NCBI GenBank assembly: GCA_964460855.1
Contig: CAYWQH010000009.1
Span: 1,351 to 65,350 of the forward strand
Length of the DNA: 64,000 nt
Source: an uncultured Candidatus Saccharibacteria bacterium
GTDB taxonomy: Bacteria > Patescibacteriota > Saccharimonadia > Saccharimonadales > UBA10212
Direction of reading: 5' to 3'
Shown one piece after another: positions 6,635-58,597 of this stretch. The notes under the pieces are model-generated. The model saw only the letters and a program-made list of their open reading frames with translations. It ran no database searches and was not told the DNA's origin. The stretch's first letter is position 1; each line of letters begins with the position of its first letter. The position numbers and the translations under genes were made by a program.

Positions 6635-6663
6635 TTGACAAAAAACTGCAATAAGTGTAAAGT
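6635..6663 (+). promoter_or_regulatory. sigma70-type promoter (TTGACA-17 nt-TAAAGT) with no ORF downstream
   Basis: TTGACA at 6635-6640, a 17-nt spacer, TAAAGT at 6658-6663. Confidence 0.4.
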
Positions 6664-6669
6664 ATATCT

Positions 6670-6813
6670 GTTAACAATCCATTAAATCAGCAATGAAGCT
6701 TATCCCGTAACGGTTGGTCGCTTGGGATAAGTGGAGCCAGTAGCGAACCCACGGCTTAATGAGTCAGTAATTTTTTGATTTTGATAATCCCGGGTTTTCT
6801 GCCCGGGTTTTTT
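6670..6813 (+). ncRNA. candidate small RNA or orphan leader (unclassified)
   Basis: About 145 nt between the promoter at 6635 and the terminator at 6789-6813. It contains the hairpin CTTATCCC...GGGATAAG and has no credible ORF. Confidence 0.25.
6789..6813 (+). terminator. rho-independent terminator
   Basis: CCCGGG-ttttctg-CCCGGG stem-loop followed by TTTTTT. Confidence 0.6.
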
Positions 6814-6829
6814 GTTGTTTTAAGCGGCC

Positions 6830-6850
6830 GATAATATTACTGTTCGAACC
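6830..6850 (+). promoter_or_regulatory. -10 box plus initial transcribed sequence of the promoter-leader module shared with other GC-rich cassettes
   Basis: GATAAT followed by ATTACTGTTCGAACC. The 14-mer ATAATATTACTGTT recurs on the minus strand at 50504-50517. Confidence 0.4.
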
Positions 6851-7018
6851 CGGGATTGGTAGCTTTCCTTACCAGCCCCGGATCCGAACGGTAATCCGGC
6901 TAAAATTGTCGAACCTTAACTTTCGCTGTCTTTTCACTACAGAAAGGAGTGCAGCGACTAGTTTCCTGAACGAGAAAGGTTTGCCCGAAGTACGTCCAAT
7001 CCATTTAAGGAGCAGAAC

Positions 7019-8383
7019 GTGTTCAAAAAGCGAAACCTGGCCATACTTGGCGCCTTGGTTGGCGTCTCGCTGGCCACGGTGCTGGCCATGTCGGCCACTG
7101 CCAGTTCGTCCACCAAGGCCGTCAACACCCCTATGGGGCAGATCATCCCGGCCTCCCAGGCCCTCAAGCTGGTCAAGGCCTCGCGCCTGAACCGCAAGGT
7201 GCCGGTCGGCTTCTGCGCCCGCAACGGCGTGATTCGCTGGCTCTTCGTCGGCGGCGACGCGCAGGACCCCCACATGACGAAGGCGATGTTCATCCGCGAC
7301 TACGGCAACACCGCCGCGATCCCGGCCATGGAACGGGGCTTCGCCTGCATCAGCCATAACGCGGCGGCCATCGCGGCCGTTTCGCGTCAGCTGGTGTGGA
7401 ACATCCACAAGGGCCACGTGTCGTCCTGCAAGGTGCTGTCCGGCACCTACCTGCCCGCGCTCGGCTACCACTACCTCCGCCATCCATCAATCAAGGCGGC
7501 GGTGTGGTCCGGCAAGGGCACGCTGGGCTGCGTGCAGTCGACCGTCAAGGGCGTGCCCTTCGGTCGTACCTGGGAGGCGATGTGCGGCCCGGCCGTTTGC
7601 ACCTACCAGCGCGTCGCCGACGCCACGTTTGCGGCCGTCAACCGCAGGCCCGGCGGCCCCGATGGCAGCGGCTGCGGCAACATGATTCCGAAGATGATTC
7701 GGACTCGCATCGTGCTGGTGCGCAAGCGATTCCCGGTGGCGAACTTCGCTACCAAGGGCTGGAGCTTCGCGGGCCTGCCTTGGCAGATGCCGGCTGGCGC
7801 CGCGCACCTGCTGGTTAAGTTCCGGCCGCTCAACCCCATCAGCCACAAGTTCGGCGCCGTGACGTCCACGGTGGTCGCCACCCACAACGGCGCCATCTCG
7901 CTGGGCAATGCCTGGCCAGGGTCCCAGTACTGGGTCGCCGAGCTCCATCCCAAGCCCGGCACGGTCGTCATCGACCCGACCACCCACGTGTCCTACAACA
8001 TGGACGCCTGGACGGTCGACCCGCGCGTGCTGACCTTCACCGTCGGCGCCCATCCCACCACGGTCCACTTCGGCAACACGGCCGCGCCATGCATGTGCGT
8101 GGAGTGCATGGGCCACGGCAACTTCGCGGCTGGCTACACCTACACCCGGGAGTTCATGATCACCAGCTGGCAGGGCCCGATGGACGCCCACGCCAAGAGC
8201 CTGATCAAGATCTCTTCGACAACGCCGGCTACGGTCCAGTTCGTCTCCTTCACCACGACCCAGCCGAACCAGTTCGGCGACGTCCTGGTCCAGGTGACCT
8301 TCAAGGCCCTCCAGGCCGGCGCCGGCAACTTGCACGTCGCGTTCGGCAGCGTCCACGATGACGCCCCGCTGACCGTCAAGTAG
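7019..8383 (+). CDS. secreted cysteine-containing protein of unknown function (GC-rich cassette)
   Basis: GTG start 6 nt after AAGGAG. N-terminal signal peptide 'MFKKRNLAILGALVGVSLATVLAMSATA'. Third codon positions are almost all G/C, which picks this frame over the overlapping shadow ORFs. Confidence 0.75.
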   Translation: MFKKRNLAILGALVGVSLATVLAMSATASSSTKAVNTPMGQIIPASQALKLVKASRLNRKVPVGFCARNGVIRWLFVGGDAQDPHMTKAMFIRDYGNTAAIPAMERGFACISHNAAAIAAVSRQLVWNIHKGHVSSCKVLSGTYLPALGYHYLRHPSIKAAVWSGKGTLGCVQSTVKGVPFGRTWEAMCGPAVCTYQRVADATFAAVNRRPGGPDGSGCGNMIPKMIRTRIVLVRKRFPVANFATKGWSFAGLPWQMPAGAAHLLVKFRPLNPISHKFGAVTSTVVATHNGAISLGNAWPGSQYWVAELHPKPGTVVIDPTTHVSYNMDAWTVDPRVLTFTVGAHPTTVHFGNTAAPCMCVECMGHGNFAAGYTYTREFMITSWQGPMDAHAKSLIKISSTTPATVQFVSFTTTQPNQFGDVLVQVTFKALQAGAGNLHVAFGSVHDDAPLTVK

Positions 8384-8407
8384 TCCGCTCGTTCGGGGAA
8401 GCACAAC

Positions 8408-10785: not shown

Positions 10786-11643
10786 GTGAAACCGACAGAA
10801 ATGAGGAATATACGGGCGAAGCTAGAGACCTTACAACTGGAATGTACTACGAATAAGGAAGAGGGATTATCTAACAACAAGACCAGTGGCGTTCGCAAGG
10901 CACCGCTCCGCGGGCCGGTCGAGGAAGAGTACGACACTTCGCCGAAGTGGCTGAAGGGTTCGAATCCCCGCGCCAGTAAGCACGCCCCGACCGACAAGCT
11001 CATGCCGACGATCGACGGTGAACTTCTACCGGTCGTGGAGGTGAGGACGGTTGATGGCTACCAGGACGCGGTGGGCACGTATTTCCGCCACATCTACCGC
11101 ATCAAGCGGCAGCCCAAGCTGTGGAGCGGGCCGGCTCATGTCCAGCTGACACACGCGCTGCGCTTCTTCAATATCGCGTCGCGCAAGCTCAGCAACAAGG
11201 CATACCGCCGGGTAGGCCATGAAATCGGCACCCAGGGTAAGATCATGGAAGACCCCGCGGACCTCCTAAAGCGGGCCGGCGCCTCGAAAGCCGTAGCCGA
11301 GAAGATTGTTGTCGACCTGCTGGAGCTCGAACTGCTCCAGCGCCAGCCGAACGGTGTTTACCACGTGCTGGCCAAGCGGCTTGTCGTCATGGCTGGTGAC
11401 TTGCCGTATCCCGAAGAGACCAACGAGCAAGGAGGCACGATCTTGCCTGTCCAAAAGAGCAAGCGCCGCCGCGCCCCCGCGCGCCCTGCGTCGCCGGATT
11501 ACCAGAAGCTACTGGACGAGTTCCAGTTCGCTTCGGAGGAGTTGAGCGAGCACTTCAGGGAGCTCGTCGAACGGAACGCTGAGCTCGAGGCGGAGAACGC
11601 CAGGATGCGCCCTGTCTTCGACATGGCTCACCGCGTCAAGTAG
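10786..11643 (+). CDS. hypothetical protein, GC-rich cassette (possible winged-helix region plus C-terminal coiled coil); start uncertain
   Basis: Longest ORF, with a GTG start. GC3 bias rises from about 10890. An alternative ATG at 11002 lacks an SD. The C-terminus 'ELVERNAELEAENARMR' looks like a coiled coil. Confidence 0.55.
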   Translation: MKPTEMRNIRAKLETLQLECTTNKEEGLSNNKTSGVRKAPLRGPVEEEYDTSPKWLKGSNPRASKHAPTDKLMPTIDGELLPVVEVRTVDGYQDAVGTYFRHIYRIKRQPKLWSGPAHVQLTHALRFFNIASRKLSNKAYRRVGHEIGTQGKIMEDPADLLKRAGASKAVAEKIVVDLLELELLQRQPNGVYHVLAKRLVVMAGDLPYPEETNEQGGTILPVQKSKRRRAPARPASPDYQKLLDEFQFASEELSEHFRELVERNAELEAENARMRPVFDMAHRVK

Positions 11644-15907: not shown

Positions 15908-17137
15908 TTATTCGTTACGCAAAGCTTCGATTGGGTCTTTTTTAGCTGCCTTAAGCGCCGGCGTAATACAAAACAGCACGCCAATAACTATCGAAACCCC
16001 AGTAGCGATAAAGACGATCGGCCAGGTAATTACCGGCTTAAAGTCGGTGGTTATGCGCAACAGCATATTAATTCCAAAAGCGATTAGTACGGCTAAAATA
16101 CCTCCGAAAACTGTTAGTACCAAACCTTCGGTTAAGAATTGGCCGAGAATCTGGCGGTTGGTAGCACCCACGGCTTTGCGGATGCCGATTTCGCGGTTCC
16201 GCTCGCTAACGTTTACCAGCATGATATTCATAATTCCAATGCCGCCCACCAGCAGCGAGATGCCCGCCACTCCCGAAATAAAACCGGTAATGACGTTTAA
16301 TACCGTGCTGGTTATAGACAGTACTTCGGATTGTTTCAGAACCGTAATATTATCGCCGTCTTTATGGTTTACGGCCAAGGCTGCTTGCACGTCTTTAACG
16401 GCCTGGTCGTTATTTGTTCCCTTATTGGTAGCCACTAAAATTTGCTGGATCTGGGCTTTGTCACCGGTTAAGTCTTTGCCGGTGGTGTAAGGAATAAAAA
16501 TCGTGGAATTTAAGTCGGATCCCAATGTAGAAAACGTACCCGTAGGGGTGGCCTCGAACACGCCGCGCACCCTAAATGACTGCCCGTCGATGTTAAGCGA
16601 CCGGCCCACCGGGTTCAGTTCGTTAAACATCTGGGCGGCAATGTTAGGCCCGATAATGGCGTTGAACTGGTTGTTGTCGCTGTCATCAAAGTAAGCGCCG
16701 TAAGCGATTTTTTGGTTGAGTACGTTGGGCGCGTCGTTGCCGGTGCTCAGGACGTAAATGTTAGTTAATTGGTGGTCCTCGTTAGCAGCGCTGTTAGTTA
16801 TGAAGCTGATTGGCACGGCATTAGTTACGAACGGCAACTTTTTGACGGCATCAACGTCCTGGTCGCTTAAGGTACTGGTAGAAAGTACCGCCAACGGGTT
16901 AACGCCGGTTATATTGCCTTTTTTGTCGCGGTTGATGAGCTTGCCGGGCCGCACGGTTAAAACATTGTTGCCCAGTTGGGTAATTTGGTCGCTGACCTGG
17001 TGCTTTAAGCCTTCGCCCAAACTAACAGTAACGATAACCGAGCTAACGCCGATAATTATGCCCAGCATTGTAAGCAAACTGCGCCAGCGGTTAGACCGCA
17101 AATTAGCGATGGCCATTTTGACGTTTACGCCAAACAT
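15908..17137 (-). CDS. ABC transporter permease, MacB/FtsX-like
   Basis: An N-terminal TM helix, a large periplasmic domain and a C-terminal FtsX-type 3-TM bundle ('ERNREIGIRKAVGA'). Confidence 0.85.
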   Translation of the reverse strand: MFGVNVKMAIANLRSNRWRSLLTMLGIIIGVSSVIVTVSLGEGLKHQVSDQITQLGNNVLTVRPGKLINRDKKGNITGVNPLAVLSTSTLSDQDVDAVKKLPFVTNAVPISFITNSAANEDHQLTNIYVLSTGNDAPNVLNQKIAYGAYFDDSDNNQFNAIIGPNIAAQMFNELNPVGRSLNIDGQSFRVRGVFEATPTGTFSTLGSDLNSTIFIPYTTGKDLTGDKAQIQQILVATNKGTNNDQAVKDVQAALAVNHKDGDNITVLKQSEVLSITSTVLNVITGFISGVAGISLLVGGIGIMNIMLVNVSERNREIGIRKAVGATNRQILGQFLTEGLVLTVFGGILAVLIAFGINMLLRITTDFKPVITWPIVFIATGVSIVIGVLFCITPALKAAKKDPIEALRNE

Positions 17138-18229: not shown

Positions 18230-18319
18230 GGAGAGGTCGCATAGTGGCCGAGTGCGCTACCTTGGAAAGGTAGTATAGGGGCAACTCTATCGAGGGTTCG
18301 AATCCCTCTCTCTCCGCCA
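18230..18319 (+). tRNA. tRNA-Ser (anticodon GGA), CCA encoded
   Basis: Acceptor stem GGAGAGG/CTCTCTCC, anticodon stem-loop CTACC-TTGGAAA-GGTAG, a long variable arm, T-arm GAGGG-TTCGAAT-CCCTC, and a terminal GCCA. Confidence 0.9.
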
Positions 18320-18353
18320 ATCTTTTCGCTAAAATCTATTTAGCGAAAAGATT
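18320..18353 (+). terminator. 13-bp hairpin directly after the tRNA
   Basis: AATCTTTTCGCTA-aaatctatt-TAGCGAAAAGATT. Confidence 0.5.
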
Positions 18354-18361
18354 GACCCTGA

Positions 18362-18494
18362 GCGAATCCGCGGGAGCGGATGAGTCGAAGGGCCCTTACT
18401 GCTGCGTTAGCGATCCAAGAAAAAATACTGGTGGGTCGAAATCCCTCCCTGCCGGAAGGCGACGCGTCGAAGGGCCCGAACTGCCGCGTCAGCG
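18362..18494. repeat. two tandem degenerate repeat units containing tRNA 3'-end-like fragments
   Basis: 29-nt cores at 18384-18412 and 18466-18494 (GTCGAAGGGCCC..ACTGCnGCGTnAGCG) match at 25/29. The segment GGGTCGAAATCCCTCCCTGCC at 18430-18455 resembles the tRNA-Ser T-arm/acceptor 3' end. Confidence 0.6.
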
Positions 18495-18511
18495 GCTCAA
18501 CTTTTAAACAT

Positions 18512-18540
18512 TTGCCAAATCCACCAGTTAAGCAGATAAT
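18512..18540 (+). promoter_or_regulatory. promoter TTGCCA-17 nt-GATAAT, 6 nt before the ATG (leaderless-type)
   Basis: Paralogous to 19810-19838. Confidence 0.55.
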
Positions 18541-18546
18541 TTTTTT

Positions 18547-19794
18547 ATGATAGAGCGGGACGGTTACCCAAGTATGGACCGTTCACACCATTTGGAAGAG
18601 ATTGACTTGCCGCCGCCAATGCCGGAAGGGCTTGGCGCGCATGCCAGGCTGGGCGAATTGGCAGTCGCCAGCCTAAGCCCGGCCTCAATAGAAACTGTCC
18701 ATCCGGAATTTGACCTGGAAGCCAGGACGCAGGCCATAAATTTTATAAGGCAAAATTATGCCGGCCACCCAAAAGTAAACTGGCTGGTTAAAAAATATCT
18801 TTGGCAGCAAGACCTGCGCCGCCACCCCGAAATTACCGCCGCCAGCCGCGACCTGCAAAATACCACCCGGATCCGTTTGGGAGTAGAGGCATTTTCGGAC
18901 GGCCAGGAAACACAAGCATTACTCGATGCAGCTGCTGCCTGCGACGTAATTACCCTCCATTACACCGGCCTGGTCCAAAGCTTTGCCCGCCGGTTTAGCA
19001 ACAGTTTCCCTAGTAGTCCAATAACTTTCGAAGATTTCGTGCAGGAAGGTATGGCTGCAATAGCTAATTCAATTAGGCGTTTTGACGATGCAAAGGGCTC
19101 GTTTTTCTACTCCTATGCATCATCCGTCATAACCGGCAGCATGCACCACCTCCAGCGCGACAAAGGCAGTATGGTGTCCATCTCAAGGAATTTAATGGCC
19201 GCGTACAAGAATTTGTCTGTTCTGGAAAATGAGTACTATACCGAGCACCACATATACCCAACTGCCGCTTACCTGGCCGCCGAACTAGGTATTTCAGAAG
19301 AGGACCTGCAAGCTGTTATTGCCGCCAGAAGCTATAAGTCGTTAGAGTGGCAGGCTGAAGACGGCGGTGAACCTTTAATGGACAGCCTGGCCGGCAGCGA
19401 CGCGGTAGATGAGATGGTCGAATCCAAGTTGCTGCGCGATATTTTAGTAAAGTCCATAACTGATTTCTACGAAGCAGGCAGCAATATAGAAAAATGCCAG
19501 ATCGTCCTGTTTTGCGCTTACCACGACTTAAGTTATCCCGAGCTCGGGCATTTTATTTATAAGAGGTCAAAGCGGTCAAAAGAAATCGATTATTCCGCCA
19601 TGCTTGAGCTGGTGCGCGAAGCTGATAGGGAAATTCATAAACCCGGGCCTCGAAGCGCGGCCCGTAACATTACTTCACAAAGGGCTGTAGCTAATGTAAC
19701 TGGATACAGCCAGATGAATATCAGCCGGATTATCCGCAAGGTAGGCTGCCAGCTGGCATTTGAGCTAAGCCAGCAGCACCCCAACCTCGTATAA
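18547..19794 (+). CDS. divergent sigma-70 family protein
   Basis: Region 2-like 'FEDFVQEGMAAIANSIRRFDDAKGSFFYSYASSVITGSMHHLQRD', region 3/4-like segments, and a long N-terminal extension. Confidence 0.6.
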   Translation: MIERDGYPSMDRSHHLEEIDLPPPMPEGLGAHARLGELAVASLSPASIETVHPEFDLEARTQAINFIRQNYAGHPKVNWLVKKYLWQQDLRRHPEITAASRDLQNTTRIRLGVEAFSDGQETQALLDAAAACDVITLHYTGLVQSFARRFSNSFPSSPITFEDFVQEGMAAIANSIRRFDDAKGSFFYSYASSVITGSMHHLQRDKGSMVSISRNLMAAYKNLSVLENEYYTEHHIYPTAAYLAAELGISEEDLQAVIAARSYKSLEWQAEDGGEPLMDSLAGSDAVDEMVESKLLRDILVKSITDFYEAGSNIEKCQIVLFCAYHDLSYPELGHFIYKRSKRSKEIDYSAMLELVREADREIHKPGPRSAARNITSQRAVANVTGYSQMNISRIIRKVGCQLAFELSQQHPNLV

Positions 19795-19809
19795 GCTAAA
19801 AGTTTTAAT

Positions 19810-19838
19810 TTGCCAAAGCAATTGGTTAAGTGGATAAT
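19810..19838 (+). promoter_or_regulatory. promoter TTGCCA-17 nt-GATAAT, 8 nt before the ATG (near-leaderless)
   Basis: Paralogous to 18512-18540. Confidence 0.55.
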
Positions 19839-19846
19839 AAATTTCC

Positions 19847-20980
19847 ATGATAGACCGGGACAGTAATATTGATCTGGGCAGGCCGAAAAAGCTAGAGCAG
19901 TTTGTAAGCTCGCTTCAGTCGTTGAGAGCGCATGCCGGCATGATGGATGTCGGACTGTCATTTTTAGAGCCCGGTGAACTTGATGATCACGCTATCGAAG
20001 TAATAACCCGGCACTTACAGATATTGCATAGCCAGCTTGGCGAATTAGCCCTCAAGGCCGATCTATTATCCGGAGTTCACGAGGCAGCTTCTGTAACGGT
20101 GCTGACGACACTAGACCTCACAACTGAATCAGAACCTGAAGCAACAATTACCGACAAGCCGGAACCCGTCTCTTATATCGAAACGGAGCAATCTATACCG
20201 GCGATAGAACAGCCTGCCGAAAAAGTTGAAACCCCGCCTCTTAACTCAGATGATCTGAACGAAAAGACAAAGAGGGGTATAAAAGTAGAAGTTACCTTGA
20301 CAAATGATGAGGGGATATCCGGCTCAATGCTATTGTCCCGAAGGCAAGCTGAAATTCTTAAAATGATTACGGCAAGTGATAAACCTCTAAAATCAAGTGA
20401 TTTTAAAAGTTTATATGACGCAAAGAATAACCAGGTTTTTTATGCCTGTTTTAGCAGCGACCGGAAAGCGATATTTTTGGAATCCGGGCGGCTTGGCTTC
20501 GCATTTCCAATTGTTTATTCCGGAGCAAAAGGCGGGACCCGCTATTCCAAGCGGCCTGATTTAAGTTTCGAATTCGGTACGAAGGAAATTGATACGGGTC
20601 AGCAAGCTCAAATGCGAAATGTTAGAAGAAGCAAACATACTGATAAAGCCGAGAACAAGGAAGCTGGTATAAGCAGATTAAATTTAATGGCCAATGGAGA
20701 AGCGGTAAGCATAGAAGCCGACGACACACTCCGGCACATCATAAGCAAACTTTCTAAAAACCAGCAGGGCATAACGGTAGCAAAATTACGCGAAGGTTTT
20801 GAGCAAGACCCCAAAGGGCAAAATCAACTGGAATGGATGAGGTGCAAAAACGCATTGCAATATCTTGAAGGGGAATTAGCCGAAGAGATAGGTTTTAAAT
20901 TAATAAGCCATACGATATTAACTATTAGGGGCGAAGAAGACGTATTGTACTTTCTTGCCGACGGTGTTTCTCTGGCCTAA
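19847..20980 (+). CDS. hypothetical protein (lower-GC island gene)
   Basis: 377-aa ORF. It shares its promoter and first codons (MIDRD vs MIERD) with the preceding sigma-like gene. No family recognised. Confidence 0.55.
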   Translation: MIDRDSNIDLGRPKKLEQFVSSLQSLRAHAGMMDVGLSFLEPGELDDHAIEVITRHLQILHSQLGELALKADLLSGVHEAASVTVLTTLDLTTESEPEATITDKPEPVSYIETEQSIPAIEQPAEKVETPPLNSDDLNEKTKRGIKVEVTLTNDEGISGSMLLSRRQAEILKMITASDKPLKSSDFKSLYDAKNNQVFYACFSSDRKAIFLESGRLGFAFPIVYSGAKGGTRYSKRPDLSFEFGTKEIDTGQQAQMRNVRRSKHTDKAENKEAGISRLNLMANGEAVSIEADDTLRHIISKLSKNQQGITVAKLREGFEQDPKGQNQLEWMRCKNALQYLEGELAEEIGFKLISHTILTIRGEEDVLYFLADGVSLA

Positions 20981-26159: not shown

Positions 26160-27359
26160 ATGTTAGACACGGCACAATCGATTATTCGGCGCGTGGGAAA
26201 ACAAATTGGATTGAGCGATGACGCAATCGAAAAACTGCTAAAGGCCGAGGCCGAACACGAGTTCGAAATCGAATTGTCTAACGGCAAAAAGCATAAAGCC
26301 TACCGGGTCCAGCACAACAGTAAATTGGGGCCATATAAAGGCGGTATCCGCTTCCACGAAAACGTTAATCTCGACGAAGTCCGGGCCCTGGCTACTTTAA
26401 TGAGCCTCAAAACGGCAGCCGTTGGCCTGCCGCTGGGCGGCGGCAAAGGCGGCGTAGCCGTTAACCCAAAACACTTAACCGAAGATGAGCTGGAAGAACT
26501 CAGCCGCAAATTCGTAGCCCATTTATACACGCATATCGGGCCGGACAAAGACATCCCGGCGCCCGATGTAAACACCGACGCGAAAATTATCGACTGGATG
26601 GTTGATGAGTACGAAAAGCTGACCGGCGATACTTCCAAAGCCAGCTTTACCGGCAAGTCGGTGGGCAAGGGCGGCAGCGCCGGCCGCGAAGCGGCTACCG
26701 GGCGGGGCGGGGTAATCGTTACGCGCGAACTTCTCAAAAAAATGAATAACCACCAAGAGGAACTGACTTATGCCGTGCAAGGTTTTGGCAACGTCGGGGC
26801 ATTCTTCGCAATGGTTGCCGAACAAGACCAGCACAACTGGCAGCTGCTGGGCGCAACAGATACCAGCGGCGGCGTCTATTTGCCAACCGGCTTAAGCGCC
26901 AAACACCTTTTCGATTTCAAAAAGAAGGGCGGCAAATTATCTAATTTCGGGCAGGGCGAAACTATCGATAATGAAGAATTGCTAGGCCTGGATGTCGATA
27001 TCCTGGTGCTGGCCGCCCTCGAAGATTCCGTTACGGCGGCCAATGCCGAAAACATCAAAGCCCGCTACATAATCGAAATGGCCAACGGGCCGGTAAACGA
27101 TAACGCCAACCGCACGCTTGATATGCACGATACGGTAGTTATACCCGACGTTTTAGCCAACGCCGGCGGGGTAATCGTCAGCTACCTGGAGTGGCAGCAA
27201 AACCGCCTGGGCGAAGAATGGGACGAATCTAAAGTAAACCAGGAACTGGAAAATTACCTGGTTAACGCCACCGGTACCATTTACGAGCAGGCCCGCAAAA
27301 GCCACACCAACCTTAAAGAAGCGGCTTTTGAAGTAGCTTTGCGCCGCCTAACCGCCTAA
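26160..27359 (+). CDS. gdh: Glu/Leu/Phe/Val dehydrogenase (glutamate dehydrogenase-like)
   Basis: 'KGGIRFH' and 'LPLGGGKGG' catalytic motifs and a 'GFGNVG' Rossmann motif. Confidence 0.85.
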   Translation: MLDTAQSIIRRVGKQIGLSDDAIEKLLKAEAEHEFEIELSNGKKHKAYRVQHNSKLGPYKGGIRFHENVNLDEVRALATLMSLKTAAVGLPLGGGKGGVAVNPKHLTEDELEELSRKFVAHLYTHIGPDKDIPAPDVNTDAKIIDWMVDEYEKLTGDTSKASFTGKSVGKGGSAGREAATGRGGVIVTRELLKKMNNHQEELTYAVQGFGNVGAFFAMVAEQDQHNWQLLGATDTSGGVYLPTGLSAKHLFDFKKKGGKLSNFGQGETIDNEELLGLDVDILVLAALEDSVTAANAENIKARYIIEMANGPVNDNANRTLDMHDTVVIPDVLANAGGVIVSYLEWQQNRLGEEWDESKVNQELENYLVNATGTIYEQARKSHTNLKEAAFEVALRRLTA

Positions 27360-27452
27360 ATTTACATTTATCAGGTATCATTGCTCATTTATTTATCATT
27401 TTATAATTGGTAAATGTTAAATAAATTGTGAAATGCTAAATGATAAATGATA
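27360..27452. repeat. AT-rich imperfect palindromic module (TCATTTA/TAAATGA repeats), an empty paralog of the module around 56829-57240
   Basis: The left arm ATTTACATTTA... (27360-27400) and right arm AAATGCTAAATGATAAAT (27431-27448) match the flanks of the four-helix-bundle gene. Confidence 0.6.
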
Positions 27453-27475
27453 ATTGTCTCAAAAGGAGACATCTT

Positions 27476-40601: not shown

Positions 40602-40665
40602 TTAATTAACCGCAAACTTTGAATTTCAAAATCTCTGGTTAATGTTTGACCGGATATAGGGGGGC

Positions 40666-40691
40666 GCCCCGGGGTCGGTTGACCCCGGGGC
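40666..40691. terminator. perfect 11-bp GC hairpin between convergent genes
   Basis: GCCCCGGGGTC-ggtt-GACCCCGGGGC. Confidence 0.55.
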
Positions 40692-40721: not shown

Positions 40722-41381
40722 CTACAGGCCGAAGTTGCGGTGGAAGTTCTCGTACGCCGACAGCGGCGCCGGCTCCCGCTCGGGCTCCGGCTCGCTCTCC
40801 AGCTCCGGCTCGCTCTCCAGTTCGAAGATCGAGTCGAGGGTGTCGACGTAGAAGTCCTGCATCCGATGGTGGTTGGCCCGGATCAGCGGTTCCAGAGCCA
40901 GACGGATGCCGTACCAGTCGCTCGAGTCGTACCTCCTGATGAAGTTGAGGTGGTACGGCACGTCGAGATCGTCGACGACGCCCAGCGTCCGGCGCAGCGC
41001 CTCATCGAGGAGGCGCTTCTCGGACAGGAAGGTGCCGCGGTTGTTAGTGATCCGCAGCACGAGGGCGTCCAGCGCCGGTATGTCGCCGGCGACATCGGTG
41101 CAGACGACGAACGGCACGCGCTCGACCTTGTACACCGGGTTGCAGGCATGCCGGAACTCGGTCTCGAAGATGTCAGCCAGGTCGCTGGCCGAGTAGTAGC
41201 CGGCAGCGCGGGCCATCCACATGAACTCCTCGCGGCCGGGTTGGCCGGCCACGGAGGGCCAGTTGAACGCGATGGCCAGGATGGGCAGGTCGTTGTCGCC
41301 ACTGGCATCACGCACGGTGAGCCAGCAGCCAACGACTTGAACGATGCCGGACGCGATATCATCGCTGAAATCAGACATCAT
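40722..41381 (-). CDS. hypothetical protein, GC-rich cassette (acidic ELESEPE repeat tail)
   Basis: High GC3 in this frame. Tandem ATG ATG directly after GAAGGAGG (either 41381 or 41378 could be the start). C-terminal 'ELESEPELESEPEPEREP'. Confidence 0.65.
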   Translation of the reverse strand: MMSDFSDDIASGIVQVVGCWLTVRDASGDNDLPILAIAFNWPSVAGQPGREEFMWMARAAGYYSASDLADIFETEFRHACNPVYKVERVPFVVCTDVAGDIPALDALVLRITNNRGTFLSEKRLLDEALRRTLGVVDDLDVPYHLNFIRRYDSSDWYGIRLALEPLIRANHHRMQDFYVDTLDSIFELESEPELESEPEPEREPAPLSAYENFHRNFGL

Positions 41382-41452
41382 CCTCCTTCGGGTAGTGGGT
41401 TTACACCCGGTCAAACTGCGTTGCCGCAGCCTAACCGCGACAATCTAAGATT

Positions 41453-41481
41453 ATTATATAATAATTAGCAAACTTAAGCAA
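41453..41481 (-). promoter_or_regulatory. promoter TTGCTT-17 nt-TATAAT for the 40722-41381 cassette
   Basis: Minus strand: -35 at 41481-41476 and -10 at 41458-41453. Confidence 0.6.
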
Positions 41482-41567
41482 TTAGTTTAAATAGATAATT
41501 GCTAATCACAAAGCTCAAAAAGTTTAAGCATTATGATTAGTGTTTGACAGAGTATGTGTCGGGCGCG

Positions 41568-41594
41568 CCCGCCGGTTCGTTGAACACCGGCGGG
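41568..41594 (-). terminator. GC hairpin after the 41616-42071 gene
   Basis: CCCGCCGGT-N9-ACCGGCGGG. Confidence 0.5.
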
Positions 41595-41615
41595 CTTGGA
41601 GCAGGCTGGGGAGGC

Positions 41616-42071
41616 CTACTCTTGTTCCATGTCGATGTCATACCTGGTGAAGAATTCTCTGAACTCATCCACCAGGGCCCAGCGCCGATCTAGCCCTTCC
41701 TTGTAGCCGACGATCTCGCTTTCGACCATCGCGATCAGCATGAGCTCGGCCGCGTCCTTGTCGGTATGGTCATCGAGCGGGCCAGTCGATGCGTACAGTT
41801 CGGCCGGAAATATGAGCTTCACGTCAGCCAGCAGGATACTGGCCAGTTTCTTTTCGAGTTTATTGTACATCTCGAATGTCATCCGGTAGGGCCGGCCGGT
41901 ACGGTGTTCCACTCCCCAGTGGAACATTTGCCGGCAGGCCTCTTCTACGGCCTTTTCGGAGTCGTAGACCCGGGGTACCAGGTACTCCGGGTGGTGGAAC
42001 CGCTGGGCGAATAGCTGCTTGGCGATGTCCACTATCTGCCGGGCGAGCGTACCTTCGAAACTGCTTTCCAT
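41616..42071 (-). CDS. hypothetical protein, GC-rich cassette
   Basis: 151-aa ORF with a GC3-biased frame. No family recognised. Confidence 0.6.
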   Translation of the reverse strand: MESSFEGTLARQIVDIAKQLFAQRFHHPEYLVPRVYDSEKAVEEACRQMFHWGVEHRTGRPYRMTFEMYNKLEKKLASILLADVKLIFPAELYASTGPLDDHTDKDAAELMLIAMVESEIVGYKEGLDRRWALVDEFREFFTRYDIDMEQE

Positions 42072-42145
42072 GGCATCTCATTTCTCGAATGAAGGGTTAC
42101 TCTGTCAAACTGCGAATCCGCAGTCAGACAGCGGAAATCGACAAT

Positions 42146-42174
42146 ATTATAAAATAATTAATAGATATAAGCAA
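42146..42174 (-). promoter_or_regulatory. promoter TTGCTT-17 nt-TATAAT for the 41616-42071 cassette
   Basis: Minus strand: -35 at 42174-42169 and -10 at 42151-42146. Paralogous to 41453-41481. Confidence 0.6.
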
Positions 42175-42182
42175 TAAGTATA

Positions 42183-42914
42183 TCAGATTAGAGCCACGGC
42201 GAAGCCGTTGCGGCCTTCGGGCTCGCCGGTCAGCCGGCTGCGGCGGTGCGAATAATAATGCGGGTCGCCGCCGGTATCAATTTTATTGATTTCGATATTT
42301 TTTGGATTCATTCCGTTTTGGGTAAATTCGTTGAGCACATAACCGGGCAAATCTATGTGCCAGCCATCTGTTTCGTTGGTTATGTAGGGCTCCCACGAAC
42401 CATCTAATTTCTTCTCCTCAATACTTTCAAAACGGTAAGATTTTTTCTTAACCGACGGGCCGATATAACATTTTAAGTCGGCTGGGTCAGCCTGGTACTC
42501 ATTTTTTAACAGCCGCAGCATTTTAGCCGGGAACTCCAGCGCGGCGTTAGAGGTAGCTATGTGCATGAAAGCCAGCAGCGGGTGGCCGGGAATATATAAC
42601 ACGGCCGGCAGGCAATCACCGGCAAATAAGCCTATAACTATGTCGGTTCTCGAAGTAATAAAGCCGTCGCCTTTTACCCAGGCCGGTAGGCGGCCAAACT
42701 CCAAGCTGTCTAGATGGGCGATATCTATCCCGGCATTGGTATCCATCAAAACTAAGTGCTTGCCTTTAAAAGGCGCGAATAACCTTTTGCGGTTTTGTTC
42801 TACATCTGCGGCCGGACTGTATTTTTCACTCAAATTACCGAGCTTTTTGCCGGAATAGGCGATTAAGATGTTGGACGCCGGTTTGATTAGCGTAGGTTCG
42901 GTGTTTTGGGCCAT
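42183..42914 (-). CDS. pgeF: YfiH/PgeF-like (DUF152, polyphenol oxidase family) protein
   Basis: 'AGDCLPAVLY', 'FMHIATSN' and the C-terminal 'YYSHRRSRLTGEPEGRN' match the His/Cys/His and YRR..TGR signatures of the family. Confidence 0.65.
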   Translation of the reverse strand: MAQNTEPTLIKPASNILIAYSGKKLGNLSEKYSPAADVEQNRKRLFAPFKGKHLVLMDTNAGIDIAHLDSLEFGRLPAWVKGDGFITSRTDIVIGLFAGDCLPAVLYIPGHPLLAFMHIATSNAALEFPAKMLRLLKNEYQADPADLKCYIGPSVKKKSYRFESIEEKKLDGSWEPYITNETDGWHIDLPGYVLNEFTQNGMNPKNIEINKIDTGGDPHYYSHRRSRLTGEPEGRNGFAVALI

Positions 42915-43039
42915 ATATTAATTATAGCCAGGCAGGGAATTTAAGCTTAAATATATTGTAAAATAGGGCTAATAATGATATAATATGAGTTCAATGCGGA
43001 AATCGGTCCGCATGTACCTGTAGTAAGGAGGTGAGTATC

Positions 43040-43918
43040 TTGCGTGTCCCGACCGACGGGTGGCTGAATGGTGGCTGGAACAACAAGCGCCAGCAGTTCT
43101 ACCTACTGGGCGAGACGGTGGGCCTCGAGCCTAACCCGTCTCCGGAACAGTTGCAGGATACGCTTCGCCGGGTTAGCTCGGCGAAGGTCTTCGCGGAGTC
43201 CATCGCGGACTTCGTGGAGGCGACTGGTATGACCACCAAGCAGGTGGCAGACCGTCTGAAGACGGTCAACCACCAGCTGGGGGTCATGGATCCGCTGCCG
43301 TTCATGTCGCTCAAGGGTCACTGCGACCCGAAGAGCTTCCGCGGCACGGCCATCTGGCCCGCCGGTACGGTTGCCTGGATGCAGCTCCGCTGGGAGCAGA
43401 TCCAGCTGGCCGAGCTGGCCGGCGCGACTTTCGAGCGCGTCATCGTGCTCGGAAGTTCGCGCCAGTGCAACGCTCCGGCCGACCGCCGGCATCCCTACGT
43501 CAACGGGGTCTTCCCCGAGGGCAAGGAGCCGACCGAGCTCGAGCTCATGAAGCAGTGGGTGTTCGCATCCGGCCGAAACACCGGCCAGTATTTGTTCCCC
43601 GAGCTGGACGAGCACAACGAGCAGGGCAAACCGCTCTCGCTGGAGCAGATGCTCCGGCAGTACGGCGAGCGGTACGAGCCCTTCGCGCCTGACTCCCAGG
43701 TGTACGTTCCGGCCAACCCGAACGCATTGTACGTGCCACTGCACGTGCGCCGTGTACTCGGCCTGGACGATGTCTGGCTCAGCCAGGGCGGAGCCCGTCT
43801 GTACAGCGAGATGCCGCCGTACTGGTGGCCCAGCTGCCAGGACCTGATGACGACGCCTTCGGGCATCTTCAGGCTCTGGATCGAGCTGATCCGCAACGGC
43901 TGCATCAACAGCCGGTAA
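43040..43918 (+). CDS. hypothetical protein, GC-rich cassette
   Basis: GC3-biased frame. A TTG at 43040 lies 8 nt after AAGGAGG; the longest ORF begins at a GTG at 43031, abutting the SD. Confidence 0.6.
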   Translation: MRVPTDGWLNGGWNNKRQQFYLLGETVGLEPNPSPEQLQDTLRRVSSAKVFAESIADFVEATGMTTKQVADRLKTVNHQLGVMDPLPFMSLKGHCDPKSFRGTAIWPAGTVAWMQLRWEQIQLAELAGATFERVIVLGSSRQCNAPADRRHPYVNGVFPEGKEPTELELMKQWVFASGRNTGQYLFPELDEHNEQGKPLSLEQMLRQYGERYEPFAPDSQVYVPANPNALYVPLHVRRVLGLDDVWLSQGGARLYSEMPPYWWPSCQDLMTTPSGIFRLWIELIRNGCINSR

Positions 43919-49472: not shown

Positions 49473-49527
49473 GTGATAATCACGGGGCTCCCCGCACGGA
49501 TCCGAAGATCCGCGCGGGGAATACCCC
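49473..49527. repeat. 55-nt GC-rich palindromic repeat, copy A
   Basis: GTGATAATCACGGGGCTCCCCGCACGGATC-cgaa-GATCCGCGCGGGGAATACCCC. It pairs with copy B at 50072-50127. Confidence 0.85.
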
Positions 49528-49556: not shown

Positions 49557-50015
49557 CTAGGCGGCGCGCCGGAAATCGATTTCCGGCAGCTCGTCCTCGA
49601 GACTGAGCTGGCCGCTCCGGCGGTTCGGATGCCGCAGGGTCGGATGTTCGACCACCTGGGCTTCGCGCTGCCGTTGGGCCGTGTTGCGCAGCAGCCGGAG
49701 GACTTCGGCCTTGCCGTACGTGTCGCTCCATGCCATCAGGATGGCGAGGAGTTCGACGCCGCCTTTGGCCAGCGTGGTGAAGTACTTGTCGCGCCTACGG
49801 CGCAGCTCGTCAGCCAGCGCCTCCGCCAGGTCGGCCGGGATGATATCGTCGACGTTGTCGTCGTTGACCTCGTCGTAGCCGAGGGCCTGGCCGATGGCCG
49901 TCAGCTGGCAGCCACCGAGGCCGCAGTTGCCGGTGCCCCAGCCGCGCCGCCAGCCGTAGATCTCGATGTTGTAGGCCGCTCGGCATAACACATCCGCGTA
50001 CACTGGACCTCCCAT
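49557..50015 (-). CDS. hypothetical protein, GC-rich cassette
   Basis: 152 aa with a GC3-biased frame. The start is the ATG at 50015, or the GTG at 50003 if GGGAGG serves as the SD. Confidence 0.6.
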   Translation of the reverse strand: MGGPVYADVLCRAAYNIEIYGWRRGWGTGNCGLGGCQLTAIGQALGYDEVNDDNVDDIIPADLAEALADELRRRRDKYFTTLAKGGVELLAILMAWSDTYGKAEVLRLLRNTAQRQREAQVVEHPTLRHPNRRSGQLSLEDELPEIDFRRAA

Positions 50016-50071: not shown

Positions 50072-50127
50072 GTGATAATCGCGGGGCACCCCGCGCGGAC
50101 CTTGTGAGTCCGCGCGGGGAAGGCCCC
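50072..50127. repeat. 56-nt GC-rich palindromic repeat, copy B
   Basis: GTGATAATCGCGGGGCACCCCGCGCGGAC-cttgtga-GTCCGCGCGGGGAAGGCCCC, with a perfect 12-bp stem. Confidence 0.85.
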
Positions 50128-50278: not shown

Positions 50279-50476
50279 TCAGGGTGAGGTAGTGGTCGTG
50301 CCGGGCTGCGGGTGTATGAAGCCTTGGTGTCCGGCGCCGGGGATCGGCCAGCCATTGCGTAGTGCCAGGATCCCATAGGTGATGTATAGGACCATAAACA
50401 CTATGAGCGCAACGATTGCCCATCTGTTAACGCGCTCCCCTTCGTAATGCTCTTCTGGGTCGATCTGTTCCGGCAT
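50279..50476 (-). CDS. 65-aa single-TM micro-protein
   Basis: ATG 5 nt after GAGGAGG. A TGGTATAAT promoter lies just upstream. It corresponds to the last 65 codons of the 231-aa track ORF. Confidence 0.55.
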   Translation of the reverse strand: MPEQIDPEEHYEGERVNRWAIVALIVFMVLYITYGILALRNGWPIPGAGHQGFIHPQPGTTTTSP

Positions 50477-50541
50477 GCTAACCTCCTCGGTTCGCCGACA
50501 GATAACAGTAATATTATACCATAAACATAATAAATTAACAA

Positions 50542-51843
50542 TCAATCTTCGCCGTTTTGGTAGAGGTCGATGAGGTCTTTGACCGAGCCGAAAGCGATGC
50601 GGTCGAGGATGAAATTGTCCATGTTGACCACCAGCGCCGAAGCGACGGTTAAGTCTCCGTAAGTGTCGTTTATTTCGTCGAGGGCCCGGGCCAGGGCGTG
50701 GCTGTCCAGCCGGGTGCCGTCGTCGAGGCTGAGCTGCAGCGGCTCGTACGGCACCAGGTCGTAAACGGTAATGGCCAGGTGGGCGACCACTTTGGCTGCC
50801 GGCTGTTGGTCTAGGAGACGCGTGGCATGGACATAGATATCCTGCGTCGTGAACAGCCGGCCGCCAATGCGTTCGCCGTGGTGCCACATGGTGCGGTCGT
50901 CGTAAATGCAGCTGACGTGGATGGCTTCGGCGAAGAACCCGTGGCGGCGCAGCCGCCGGCCGGTTTTTTCGCACAGCTTCATCATCAGCCGGTTGAGGTG
51001 GTCGCGGTCGGCGGTTTTTTGGCCGAGCGCGTAAGTGTGGCCGATGCTGCGGCGCTTGAAGTCGACGCCGTCGATCTCCCAGCCCCGCAGCCGTAAATAC
51101 CAGTAGTAGCCATTGATTGATTCGAACACGATCTTTTTAAGCACGTGCATCGGGGCATTAAAGAACTCTAGGGGCGTGGTGATTCCGGCCCGGTAAAGTC
51201 GTCGTCGATTTCGAATATTAATGCCGCAAATATCGAGTAGGTCCATGTGTTGGTATACATCTTGTAAATTCTCCTTGGTTATTACATCTAAGCCGTCGGG
51301 CTTGTGCAGGCCGGCGGCCGTTTTTGCTAAAAAGCGGTTGGTGCCGAGGCCGACATTTACGGTAACGTAACTGCCGACTTCGTCGCGCACCCGCCGCTTA
51401 ATTTCTTTGCCTATTTCAATTAGCGACCGCTCGTCTTTGATGGCCGCGTCGTTAAAGTCGATGATCATTTCGTCGATCGATTTGGGTGTGACCCGGCTGG
51501 TGTAGCTTTCGAATATCCGCTTAAAGCGGATGTGGGCGTCGCGGTACTTGGGCGGGTCGGGCGGCAGCACTATCATATCGGGGCAGAGCTTGAGGCCGTC
51601 CATCACCCGCATGCCGGTTTTAACGCCGCAGCGCTTGGCTTCGTAGCTGGGCGCCAATATGCAGCCGCGGGGGCTAACGTAGGCCGCCACGGCCACCGGC
51701 TTGCCGCGCAGCAGGGGGTTGGCCTGCTGCTCCATGATGGCGAAGCAGCTGTTCATATCGATGTGCATTACCAGCGGCCGGGCGGTGTTAACCGGCATTT
51801 CGATGAAACCCAGCGGGTAGTTAGGCTTCAAACTGTTGGCCAC
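50542..51843 (-). CDS. dinB: Y-family DNA polymerase (DinB/UmuC-like)
   Basis: 'MHIDMNSCFAIMEQ', 'SIDEMIIDF' and little-finger domain length. The GTG start overlaps the upstream stop by 1 nt. Confidence 0.85.
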   Translation of the reverse strand: MANSLKPNYPLGFIEMPVNTARPLVMHIDMNSCFAIMEQQANPLLRGKPVAVAAYVSPRGCILAPSYEAKRCGVKTGMRVMDGLKLCPDMIVLPPDPPKYRDAHIRFKRIFESYTSRVTPKSIDEMIIDFNDAAIKDERSLIEIGKEIKRRVRDEVGSYVTVNVGLGTNRFLAKTAAGLHKPDGLDVITKENLQDVYQHMDLLDICGINIRNRRRLYRAGITTPLEFFNAPMHVLKKIVFESINGYYWYLRLRGWEIDGVDFKRRSIGHTYALGQKTADRDHLNRLMMKLCEKTGRRLRRHGFFAEAIHVSCIYDDRTMWHHGERIGGRLFTTQDIYVHATRLLDQQPAAKVVAHLAITVYDLVPYEPLQLSLDDGTRLDSHALARALDEINDTYGDLTVASALVVNMDNFILDRIAFGSVKDLIDLYQNGED

Positions 51844-52118
51844 TAGTTAACCTCACTACTGCCCAATTTTCCGAGCAGCCACGTTAAATCTTCAGTATTG
51901 AACTTGAGCTCGAAAAAGTGGACGCCGTCGGTGGCCGAAAAAACGTGGATGGTGGCCCGGCCCTGCTTGTATTTATGGTGGTAGCCCAGCTCTTTAATTA
52001 CGTACTCCCGGCCGTGCCATTCCAGCCGGAAGGGGGACAGGTCTTTGTAGGTATCTTTGGGGAAGCGGGCTATCACCGCAACCCTCTCATTAATCGTTTC
52101 ATACATTGGTTTCTCCAA
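51843..52118 (-). CDS. small protein translationally coupled to the Y-family polymerase (possible accessory factor)
   Basis: 91 aa. The stop TAG overlaps the dinB GTG (TAGTG). Confidence 0.5.
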   Translation of the reverse strand: MEKPMYETINERVAVIARFPKDTYKDLSPFRLEWHGREYVIKELGYHHKYKQGRATIHVFSATDGVHFFELKFNTEDLTWLLGKLGSSEVN

Positions 52119-52180
52119 TTGAAGTTTTAGTTGTTAATTTTTTGCTTTATAGGTTCGCTAAATTCATTCACAATATAGGT

Positions 52181-52867
52181 ATGTGCGGAAGATACACCTT
52201 ACATGCCCAGGCCGAGGAAATTGCCGAACGGTTCGGCGTGGACGATATTCTGCAGGGTTACCGCGAGAACTATAACGTCGCTCCCGGGCAAATCATGCCG
52301 GTGATTACCGAAGACGAATCGGGCCATAGGCATTTGGAGCTGATGAAGTGGGGCCTGATACCGTTTTGGGCCAAAGACCCTAAAATCGGTTACAAGCTCA
52401 TCAACGCCCGCGACGATACGATCTTCGACAAGCCGATGTGGCGCAACGTGGTGTTAAAGAAACGGGCTTTGATACCGGCCGACGGGTTTTACGAATGGAA
52501 GAAGCCGGAAGACCCCAAAGGCCGCAAACAGCCTTTTTATATTCATCCCAAACGAGAAAACTTGTTTGCCTTTGCCGGGGTTTGGGAAACCTGGAAAGAC
52601 GTTGAAGGCAAAGAGATTAAAACCTATTCGATTATTACGACCGACCCTAATAAAGAGATGCGGGGCGTGCATAACCGTATGCCTGTGATATTGGACCAAA
52701 AAGACGAAGCTTCGTGGTTGGAGCCGTCGCACACCAGCCGGGAAGACGTTGAGCCTTTCCTGCACCCGTATGACGATAATGGCTTGGATATGTTTGAGGT
52801 CAGCAGTGACGTGAATGTTACCCGGAATAACGAGGAAAAACTCATTTATCCGCTTAACTCCCAGTGA
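52181..52867 (+). CDS. SOS response-associated peptidase (SRAP/YedK family)
   Basis: It begins 'MCGRYTL' with the catalytic Cys2, and has 'NARDDT' and 'FYEW'. The longest track ORF (from 52106) adds 25 implausible residues. Confidence 0.85.
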   Translation: MCGRYTLHAQAEEIAERFGVDDILQGYRENYNVAPGQIMPVITEDESGHRHLELMKWGLIPFWAKDPKIGYKLINARDDTIFDKPMWRNVVLKKRALIPADGFYEWKKPEDPKGRKQPFYIHPKRENLFAFAGVWETWKDVEGKEIKTYSIITTDPNKEMRGVHNRMPVILDQKDEASWLEPSHTSREDVEPFLHPYDDNGLDMFEVSSDVNVTRNNEEKLIYPLNSQ

Positions 52868-56825: not shown

Positions 56826-56868
56826 GCAATTTACATTTAACACTTATCAATCCACAATTTATTTAACA

Positions 56869-57231: not shown

Positions 57232-57266
57232 TAAATAAATGATTAATGACAAATGGTAAATGACCA

Positions 57267-58187: not shown

Positions 58188-58190
58188 AAT

Positions 58191-58243
58191 GACGAACGCC
58201 CCGCGCCGGATCTGGGTAGATCCAGGCGCGGGGCGGTTCGTTC
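58191..58243. terminator. long GC-rich compound hairpin
   Basis: GACGAACGCCCCGCGCC-GGATCTgggtAGATCC-aGGCGCGGGGCGgTTCGTtC. Its core is related to the 49.5/50.1 kb repeats. Confidence 0.55.
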
Positions 58244-58254
58244 CGAGTGCGCCG

Positions 58255-58527: not shown

Positions 58528-58597
58528 GTACTTCCTCCTAGCTCGGGAACGGAACTGGAATATTATACAATAATAAGATTAAAACGTAAAGTTAAAG

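Follow-up and report, generated by a model that had tools for sequence, protein, structure and literature searches.

The question raised by this stretch of DNA, a window of 64,000 nucleotides (nt) on contig CAYWQH010000009.1 (assembly GCA_964460855.1) of an uncultured Candidatus Saccharibacteria bacterium, is whether genes that are unrelated to one another share a promoter-leader element and, if so, what kind of element this is. The initial annotation had described a mosaic of short blocks, running from a TATAAT-like box to a Shine-Dalgarno (SD) sequence, at five sites in front of GC-rich open reading frames (ORFs), one on the plus strand at 6830 (site A) and four on the minus strand at 50518 (B), 58567 (C), 42151 (D) and 41458 (E). 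It proposed either co-regulation by one factor or RNA element, or a common integration and expression platform. The strings that it quoted are all found where it placed them. Their best-supported explanation is promoter reuse of the type known from putative mobile promoters, not a new regulatory RNA, and the copying of frames between unrelated genes is best supported by the flanks of D and E together with a terminator element that surrounds a further gene, H. By a slight balance of probability we regard the sites as expression signals of lineage-specific accessory genes with a high GC content at third codon positions (GC3), which have a promoter-leader class of their own and whose non-coding frames have been copied and reused.

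The genes at sites D and E are adjacent and encode acidic soluble proteins. ORF D (41616-42071, minus strand) specifies 151 amino acids (aa), has a GC3 of 0.75 and matches no family, while ORF E (40722-41381, minus strand; 219 aa, GC3 0.89) is preceded by the SD sequence AAGGAGG. The two share approximately 85-95 nt of promoter and leader, and the likeness may continue for a few codons past the start. Promoter D (42146-42174, minus strand) has a -35 box TTGCTT at 42174-42169, an AT-rich spacer of 17 nt and a -10 box TATAAT at 42151-42146, and the homologous promoter E (41453-41481, minus strand) repeats the arrangement TTGCTT-17-TATAAT. The upstream regions (42072-42182 for D and 41382-41500 for E, both on the minus strand) give a local alignment with a z of 17.8 against shuffled sequences (72% identity over 93 columns), a blastn match of 73% over 85 nt (E 1e-11) and a mean MAFFT column identity of 79%, and sub-blocks such as CTGCGG...CGCAGTTTGAC exceed 80% identity. 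A second homologous block lies in the 3' non-coding flank (blastn, E 0.005). The coding bodies present no significant nucleotide match, and the proteins give a BLASTP E of 0.83 with an alignment score that is reached by 137 of 300 shuffles. Judged by their sequences, D and E are non-homologous genes with unambiguously related promoter-leaders, so that the claim of a shared leader on unrelated GC-rich ORFs stands for this pair; at the other sites the resemblance consists of short matches and is less general. Co-regulation by one factor is possible for D and E only. The covariance model R1 of the D/E leader, which scores 74 bits on D and 65 bits on E, finds only these two in the window, and in 1.46 Mb of related genomes it has no match. 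The second half of site A is therefore not detectably the same element.

Reuse is not confined to upstream sequence. A terminator-type GC hairpin element at 49473-49521 (minus strand) is repeated directly at 50072-50121, on the other side of ORF H (49557-50015), which encodes a DUF6197 protein. The copies are 82% identical over 50 nt (blastn, E 6e-7) and contain CCCCGCGCGGA..GCCCCGYGATTATCAC, and the terminator of gene C (58191-58243) is related to them. As the element is repeated around the DUF6197 gene and recurs after gene C, terminators have seemingly been reused like promoters.

Within the shared leader both D and E can form a hairpin. In D it occupies 42102-42131 (minus strand; CUGUCUGACUGCG-GAUU-CGCAGUUUGACAG, 13 pairs) and takes in the blocks GCTGTCT and GTTTGACAG; the leader folds at -21.2 kcal/mol and the hairpin is also present in the centroid structure. 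Its homologue in E (41408-41437, minus strand; CGGUUAGGCUGCG-GCAA-CGCAGUUUGACCG) lies in a leader folding at -27 kcal/mol (z -2.3), and the alignment of the two hairpins contains one fully compensatory pair, T-A to G-C. The initial annotation had seen in the D copy two mutually exclusive hairpins (CCGC/GCGG and CTGCG/CGCAG) resembling an attenuator; the minimum free energy and centroid structures give instead a single extended hairpin of 13 bp, which E keeps, and the 4-bp alternative is marginal. A hairpin of this kind near the 5' end would probably act as an mRNA stabiliser. Its descending strand could alternatively pair with a gene-specific arm of 13-15 nt located behind the ORF, giving a predicted clamp between the 5' and 3' untranslated regions (UTRs). 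The 5' arm of D, GTTTGACAGAGTA (42098-42110, minus strand), overlaps this descending strand and is complementary at 13 of 13 positions to the 3' arm TACTCTGTCAAAC (41542-41554, minus strand), which lies 61 nt past the stop codon, after a GC hairpin (41568-41594) and before an AT-rich hairpin (41502-41541). In E the arms GTTTGACCGGGTGTA (41402-41416) and TATATCCGGTCAAAC (40644-40658, after a GC hairpin at 40666-40691), both on the minus strand, form 13 Watson-Crick pairs and two G.U pairs on the sense RNA. D and E have different arm sequences, with corresponding changes in the partner arm. The GTTTG block of these arms lies 39 nt upstream of the start in D, 35 nt in E and 40 nt in A, a spacing counted among the features beyond chance; in A a possible 5' arm (6962-6974) pairs with 8388-8400.

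Folding of the full-length sequences predicts arm pairing with a probability of 0.98-0.99 for D, 0.91-0.99 for E and 0.83 for A, whereas among 34 control genes the best arm pair exceeds 0.9 once. When 62 genes were ranked by complementarity of their 5' and 3' flanks, the top four were all GC-rich ORFs; one of these, H, is explained instead by the terminator element of ~60 nt that stands in direct repeat on either side of it. A layout like that of D and E is also found around a GC-rich ORF of another Saccharimonadales metagenome-assembled genome (MAG; locus L029, JBBTTS010000013.1, 946-1608), in which the 5' arm CGTTGAGATTATGGTTA, 40 nt before the start, and the 3' arm TAGCTATAATCTCAACG, 79 nt past the stop codon and behind a GC hairpin, form 17 bp with two G.U pairs (predicted pairing probability 0.98). 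As a general trait of GC-rich ORFs the clamp was rejected, since among 86 related loci only L029 is clear and two others (L034 and L006) are partial. The leader hairpin and the arms are real as sequence features; a role in stabilisation or as a fold-back switch is what we infer from them, and the clamp remains a prediction with two to four examples. The mRNA of hok provides a precedent, with its fold-back by tac/fbi pairing between 5' and 3' ends and its metastable 5' hairpins, and icaR is another bacterial case of a 5'UTR-3'UTR interaction. In the same manner the 5'UTR segment of D and E forms either a local hairpin, as in the isolated leader, or a pairing with the 3' end of its own mRNA, which in silico is predicted to dominate at full length (0.91-0.99). 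A hok-type system combines a small toxin ORF with a cis antisense RNA. The D/E-type ORFs, for which no antisense RNA is known, differ from it in encoding proteins of 151-454 aa, not small toxins, in leaving the SD sequence unsequestered, and in being represented here by two to four computational examples.

The setting of these genes is a piece of chromosome of 51% GC from a small genome of the Saccharimonadales (Patescibacteria, of the Candidate Phyla Radiation, CPR), with identified genes for ValRS, TsaD, a Mur ligase, GroES/EL, PolA, a P-type ATPase, S20, Fpg and HolA. The lineage is poorly sampled, as the top GroEL matches, all from Saccharimonadales MAGs, are at most 83% identical and the nearest PolA is 73% identical. 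Reading of all ORF upstream regions found a -10 box (TATAAT or TAAAAT) 6-11 nt upstream of ATG in many ordinary genes, which suggests from sequence that about one third of the ordinary window genes, with a -10 box so close to the start codon, give leaderless transcripts. Such a box 4-12 nt before the start is present in 19 of 54 ordinary genes and in none of eight GC-rich genes of the window; in 84 related loci the corresponding figures are 336 of 1375 and 1 of 39 (Fisher p=4e-4). Each cassette, by which we mean a GC-rich gene with its flanks, would by comparison possess a sigma-70-type promoter (TTGnnn, an AT-rich spacer of 17 nt, TATAAT) and a 5'UTR of 30-80 nt, and a consensus SD sequence is present at four of the five listed sites. 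The full promoter-leader of the cassettes, set against the leaderless appearance of about one third of the other genes, places them in a separate promoter-leader class.

A sixth site, F (42956-43030, plus strand; TTGTAA-17-TATAAT-ATG.., a leader hairpin and the SD sequence TAAGGAGGTGA), which was absent from the initial annotation, precedes ORF F (43031-43918, plus strand). Site B (50477-50541, minus strand) comprises TTGTTA-17-TATAAT (50541-50513) and a leader of 36 nt, ATTACTGTT..CGAACC..GAGGAGG, upstream of two small membrane ORFs (50279-50476, minus strand, which is the GC-rich ORF B, and 50255-50136), and site C (58528-58597, minus strand; TTTACG-17-TATAAT-ATTCCAGTT followed by AGGAGG) lies upstream of a membrane ORF of 90 aa (ORF C, 58255-58527, minus strand; GC3 0.91). 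The core common to B, C, D, E and F, and absent from native promoters, is TTGnnn-17(AT-rich)-TATAAT-A(T/A)T. In a fixed register six cassette promoters resemble one another at 5.8 of 12 nt upstream and 4.3 of 9 nt downstream, as compared with 3.3 and 3.1 for 17 native promoters, a likeness reached in none of 5000 permutations (p<0.0002). Around the -10 box B and C match at 14 of 15 positions and C and D at 15 of 16. This comparison, the reading of upstream regions and model R1 agree that native genes do not carry the same leader. A constant distance of the blocks to the SD sequence, as originally proposed, fails for D, which has no clear SD sequence. The short matches among B, C, D and site 6830 may be older copies of the frame or may reflect convergence on the same strong promoter.

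Homologous upstream regions of 50-100 nt that contain a promoter and precede non-homologous genes of one genome have been described as putative mobile promoters, in the interpretation that regulatory DNA is recycled to activate new or silent genes (Matus-Garcia, Nijveen & van Passel, 2012, PMC3488235; PMC3575422). D and E resemble them in that the genes downstream are non-homologous. They differ in that reuse extends to a 3' flank and a terminator element, in that the copies are adjacent, and in that the genes served are compositionally atypical, putative orphans among many other genes of leaderless appearance. Several points weigh against the reading of D and E as reused frames. Their 73% identity is below the 80% that the definition of putative mobile promoters requires as a minimum over 50-100 nt upstream (PMC3488235). 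The N-termini of the two proteins have six identities in the first 17 residues (p~0.002, post hoc), so that D and E could be extremely diverged paralogues and not the product of a cargo swap. There are only two clear copies of the frame, which are adjacent, with none further in the window or in the 1.46 Mb of relatives, and promoters and transcript ends, 5' and 3' alike, are predictions. As to the clamp, only ~3 of 64 GC-rich ORFs of relatives have 5'/3' complementarity with z>=3, and the 3' arms of D and E come after GC hairpins and would be left out of the mRNA should transcription end there.

Site A proves to be of another nature. Its first part (6826-6901, plus strand), GATAAT-ATTACTGTT-CGAAC, forms the 5' (ascending) strand of a long and very stable imperfect hairpin in the 5'UTR (-38.2 kcal/mol, z -5.1), which has no Rfam match and no repeat elsewhere in the window. 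The GATAAT at 6830, taken earlier for a promoter, is not one: it lies inside this hairpin, lacks a -35 box and is not among the hits of the promoter scan. The second part (6905-7018, plus strand) contains ATTGTCGAACC, TTTCGCTGTCT, GTTTGCCCG and the SD sequence AAGGAG (7007-7012), with a likeness to the D leader that is confined to short blocks and an unremarkable leader fold (z -0.8). Further upstream (6635-6813, plus strand) we find a promoter TTGACA-17-TAAAGT (6635-6663), an aptamer resembling the cyclic di-GMP (c-di-GMP)-II class (6680-6761) and an intrinsic terminator (6789-6813). The supposed module at 6830 is therefore placed within the long 5'UTR of a secreted orphan protein of 454 aa (ORF A, 7019-8383, plus strand), for which no relative was found among 5.8 billion proteins. 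The aptamer covers the full model of RF01786; at 37.2 bits it falls short of the gathering score, 53.5 (E 1.7e-6 for 501 nt, ~2e-4 when scaled to the window). It keeps the AUGAA and GGAGCCAGU..AACC cores of that family and, through two double changes (GCAC/GUGC to UCGC/GCGA) that the model does not score, the pseudoknot pairing; it is likewise followed by an intrinsic terminator, 28 nt downstream, and by a gene for a secreted protein. It differs in a deletion of 3 nt close to where the aptamer match starts and in the 205 nt and large hairpin that separate terminator and start codon. The aptamer is not part of the shared blocks, and no second copy was found in 86 related loci with a regular expression for the core motifs. 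Unlike the other sites, site 6830 would sit in a long 5'UTR under a c-di-GMP-II-like riboswitch.

The simplest rival to frame reuse, generic promoter context combined with chance recurrence of -10 boxes, AT-rich spacers, SD sequences and short words, we consider unlikely as an account of the sites as a whole. Much of the mosaic taken block by block does fit it, with window counts of ATTGTCG (8 against 7.0 expected) and GTTTGAC (5 against 5.6) at chance frequency, four copies of CGCTGTCT where 1.4 are expected, and 45 copies of CGAACC that lie mostly within genes; ATTACTGTT occurs twice against 0.43 expected, a count reached in 9 of 100 shuffles. The string ATAATATTACTGTT, the 14-mer said to be identical at sites 50518 and 6830, is indeed exact at 6831 and 50517, where CGAACC follows after 0 and 9 nt (a 9-nt indel), and it is among the best matches between intergenic regions (E 0.001-0.01); since the window holds 121 exact 14-mer pairs, as compared with ~40 in shuffles, this match alone is weak. 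A string matching that of site 6830 at 20 of 24 positions lies inside a native ORF (16339-16362), and model R1 is blind to site A. Among the matches listed, a scan of metagenomes for CTGCGGNNNCGCAGTTTGAC gave chance or coding matches, largely from one conserved human-gut gene and none with a TATAAT context, and a viral scan likewise gave chance or coding matches. Against chance stands above all the homology of D and E, which at E 1e-11 and z=17.8 surpasses shuffled controls where the single blocks do not, and which reaches into the 3' flank; for these two sites chance is already refuted. The sequence flanking the cassette promoters is moreover not common to native TATAAT promoters, and three of the eight ATTGTCG and four of the five GTTTGAC copies fall in or around ~1 kb of cassette flanks.

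That those four GTTTGAC copies stand around D and E as inverted pairs, with the outer 7 bp common and the inner part specific to each cassette, invites an explanation at the DNA level, in which the repeats would be recombination sites of integron-like cassettes, the ends of non-autonomous mobile cassettes, or the borders of an ON/OFF inversion. Integron cassettes are indeed unrelated ORFs in tandem, between short inverted repeats whose 7-bp core is conserved and whose inner part is cassette-specific, their attC sites having RYYYAAC / GTTRRRY cores; GTTTGAC is one base off the consensus GTTRRRY. As in an inverton, the SD sequence and ORF stand between inverted repeats, which match at 13/13 nt in D and 13/15 nt in E, with the promoter outside, and the sequence just past the right repeat, GTCAAACAYTAAYCA, is also alike. 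This explanation is nevertheless decidedly improbable, and inversion and integron-like recombination rank as less likely than promoter reuse. No integrase (intI included), invertase or transposase was detected among the 41 window ORFs scanned against Pfam, some 20 ORFs, mostly in 21-35 kb, lying outside that scan. The GTCAAAC and GTTTGAC partners are a whole ORF apart, with no compact attC after the ORF; the 143-nt stretch from the GTCAAAC of D to the GTTTGAC of E pairs through the 7-bp core only and holds a promoter. Integron cassettes are generally promoterless, whereas here each ORF has its own TTGnnn-17-TATAAT. Unlike the ends of a miniature inverted-repeat transposable element or other transposon, the repeats have no direct duplications next to them, bound two units only and differ in their inner part between these. 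The same strain is present in runs SRR9179560, SRR9179561 and SRR9179563, and assemblies from three samples have a single orientation. Both mismatches in the arms of E, as well as all non-Watson-Crick positions in those of A and L029, are G.U on the sense RNA, which fits RNA pairing and not protein-bound DNA sites. Neither attC-like sites nor target duplications nor further copies in the 1.46 Mb of relatives were found, and the common integration platform once proposed finds no backing here. More doubtful still is co-regulation of the GC-rich genes by a shared cis-regulatory RNA that would work as a riboswitch or be bound by a protein or small RNA. For it speak the conserved D/E hairpin with its compensatory pair and mutually exclusive alternative pairings, the stable leader hairpin of F (z -2.3), and the riboswitch-like aptamer that does precede site A. 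Yet that aptamer is upstream of the noted blocks and unrelated to them; the D/E hairpin is a plain stem that lacks conserved internal loops, exists in two copies and is absent from relatives; and the leaders of B (z -0.4) and C (z -1.1), of ~30 nt, are unstructured. At gathering level the only Rfam hit is a tRNA; no Rfam family matches the D, E and F region, where up to E<=10 nothing meaningful appears in 41350-43060, so that the suggestion of a riboswitch-like shared element does not hold.

The genes that these frames serve are unusual in themselves. Nine ORFs of the window are atypical in composition, with a GC3 of 0.67-0.91 as compared with ~0.6 for the remaining ORFs (0.75-0.91 for the cassette genes); they include, besides those already located, ORF G (10786-11643) and the DinB gene (50542-51843). 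Their GC1/GC2/GC3 pattern is that expected of true coding frames, and most have no Pfam or PHROG family. A phage origin was considered and rejected, as eight of them found no tblastn match in 50,697 phage records and PHROGs match only DinB, apart from weak matches of the DUF6197 protein. Cassette C with its promoter, ORF and terminator (58188-58597) is missing from the junction of holA and rpsT in the two closest relatives; there the two genes abut directly, and the whole cassette is therefore extra sequence in this genome. The cassettes are absent from the relatives, and the assemblies of the three samples are identical across the D leader, with the same D sequence in all three; neither empty platforms nor alternative cargo were found in the closest relatives (PolA 70-73%) or in the other samples. 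Orthologues of gene F stand next to polA in other lineages, with a TTGACA-17-TATAAT promoter, a leader and an SD sequence of their own, and the promoter of F was inherited together with the gene beside polA. Members of this family (43031-43918 in the window, 2887-3810 in L217 and 1972-2895 in L216) have a GC3 ~0.27 above that of their neighbours in three lineages of differing background GC, and in two of these the gene is directly upstream of polA; local GC enrichment thus persists in a vertically inherited gene. The proposal that all GC-rich ORFs are recent imports was rejected on these grounds: as the F orthologues at the same polA position are GC3-elevated too, a high GC3 is not simply the mark of a recent import.

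Among other GC-rich genes of the order, short ORFs just upstream of groES are found in many Saccharimonadales genomes (L003-L082, at ~7-9.6 kb in locus coordinates), and a leaderless-type -10 box precedes 1 of 39 of them as compared with 24% of ordinary ORFs. When 76 such ORFs were clustered across all loci only three small homologous groups emerged, most of the ORFs being mutually unrelated. Locus L219 (ENA ERZ28567886 scaffold_9295, 300-1612) contains two tandem paralogues of the F family, each after an AT-rich TTATAAT promoter, with leaders that both end in ACGTCCGAAT before the SD sequence; here the sharing of leaders is due to tandem gene duplication. ACGTCC(G)AAT, taken from this locus as a candidate leader motif across species, was rejected after ten chance occurrences in 1.5 Mb.

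Further features of the window may be recorded. The DinB gene, coding for a Y-family polymerase, forms with an upstream ORF of 91 aa an SOS-type cluster (50542-52867) divergent from a gene for an SRAP (YedK-like) peptidase, with a 13-nt overlap between the annotated starts of the divergent genes. The idea that TACTGT or CGAAC next to dinB could be a LexA/SOS box was dropped on informal inspection, in which no palindromic operator of known spacing was found. The S20 gene (58598-58996, minus strand) encodes a long Lys/Ala-rich C-terminal tail of AAKKPAAKK repeats, which accounts for the 25-nt direct-repeat family D1. Repeats rich in AT (AAATGATAAATGATAA and the like) are found at 27359-27456, upstream of 27440, and at 56827-57262, where they bracket a gene of 30% GC for a '23S rRNA intervening sequence protein' (56869-57231). 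In the region 18230-20980 a tRNA-Ser (GGA) is followed by a hairpin with arms of 27 nt (18307-18365), by two tandem repeats of 42 nt 3' of the tRNA gene (18371-18412 and 18453-18494), and by two neighbouring ORFs with near-identical starts (ATGATAGA[GC]CGGGAC), of which the first matches sigma-70 region 2 and the second has no Pfam match.

In the most likely history of D and E, a cassette or an allelic cassette would have been duplicated locally, after which recombination in the conserved flanks would have replaced the coding body. A wider proposal, to which we attach only a slim likelihood, is that this lineage of CPR epibionts keeps a small set of interchangeable expression frames, each made up of a strong promoter, 5' hairpin, SD sequence, terminator element and gene-specific clamp, into which unrelated GC-rich orphan genes, perhaps acquired through natural transformation from hosts of high GC, are slotted by recombination in the flanks, with the clamp controlling the stability or translation of the foreign mRNAs amid many native mRNAs of leaderless appearance. 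If true, such frames would constitute a natural platform for gene capture and expression that operates without an integrase. The c-di-GMP-II-like aptamer of site A would indicate that a second messenger controls a secreted protein in this phylum, and the clamp, if confirmed, would show mRNA pairing from end to end on genes of ordinary size, which is rare in bacteria. The cassette promoters and leaders are at the same time candidate strong expression parts for the new genetic systems of Saccharibacteria. Should the reuse of frames be real, it would mean that a member of the Patescibacteria with a reduced genome expresses newly acquired or newly arisen genes by copying whole frames of promoter, 5'UTR and terminator and not by evolving such signals afresh.

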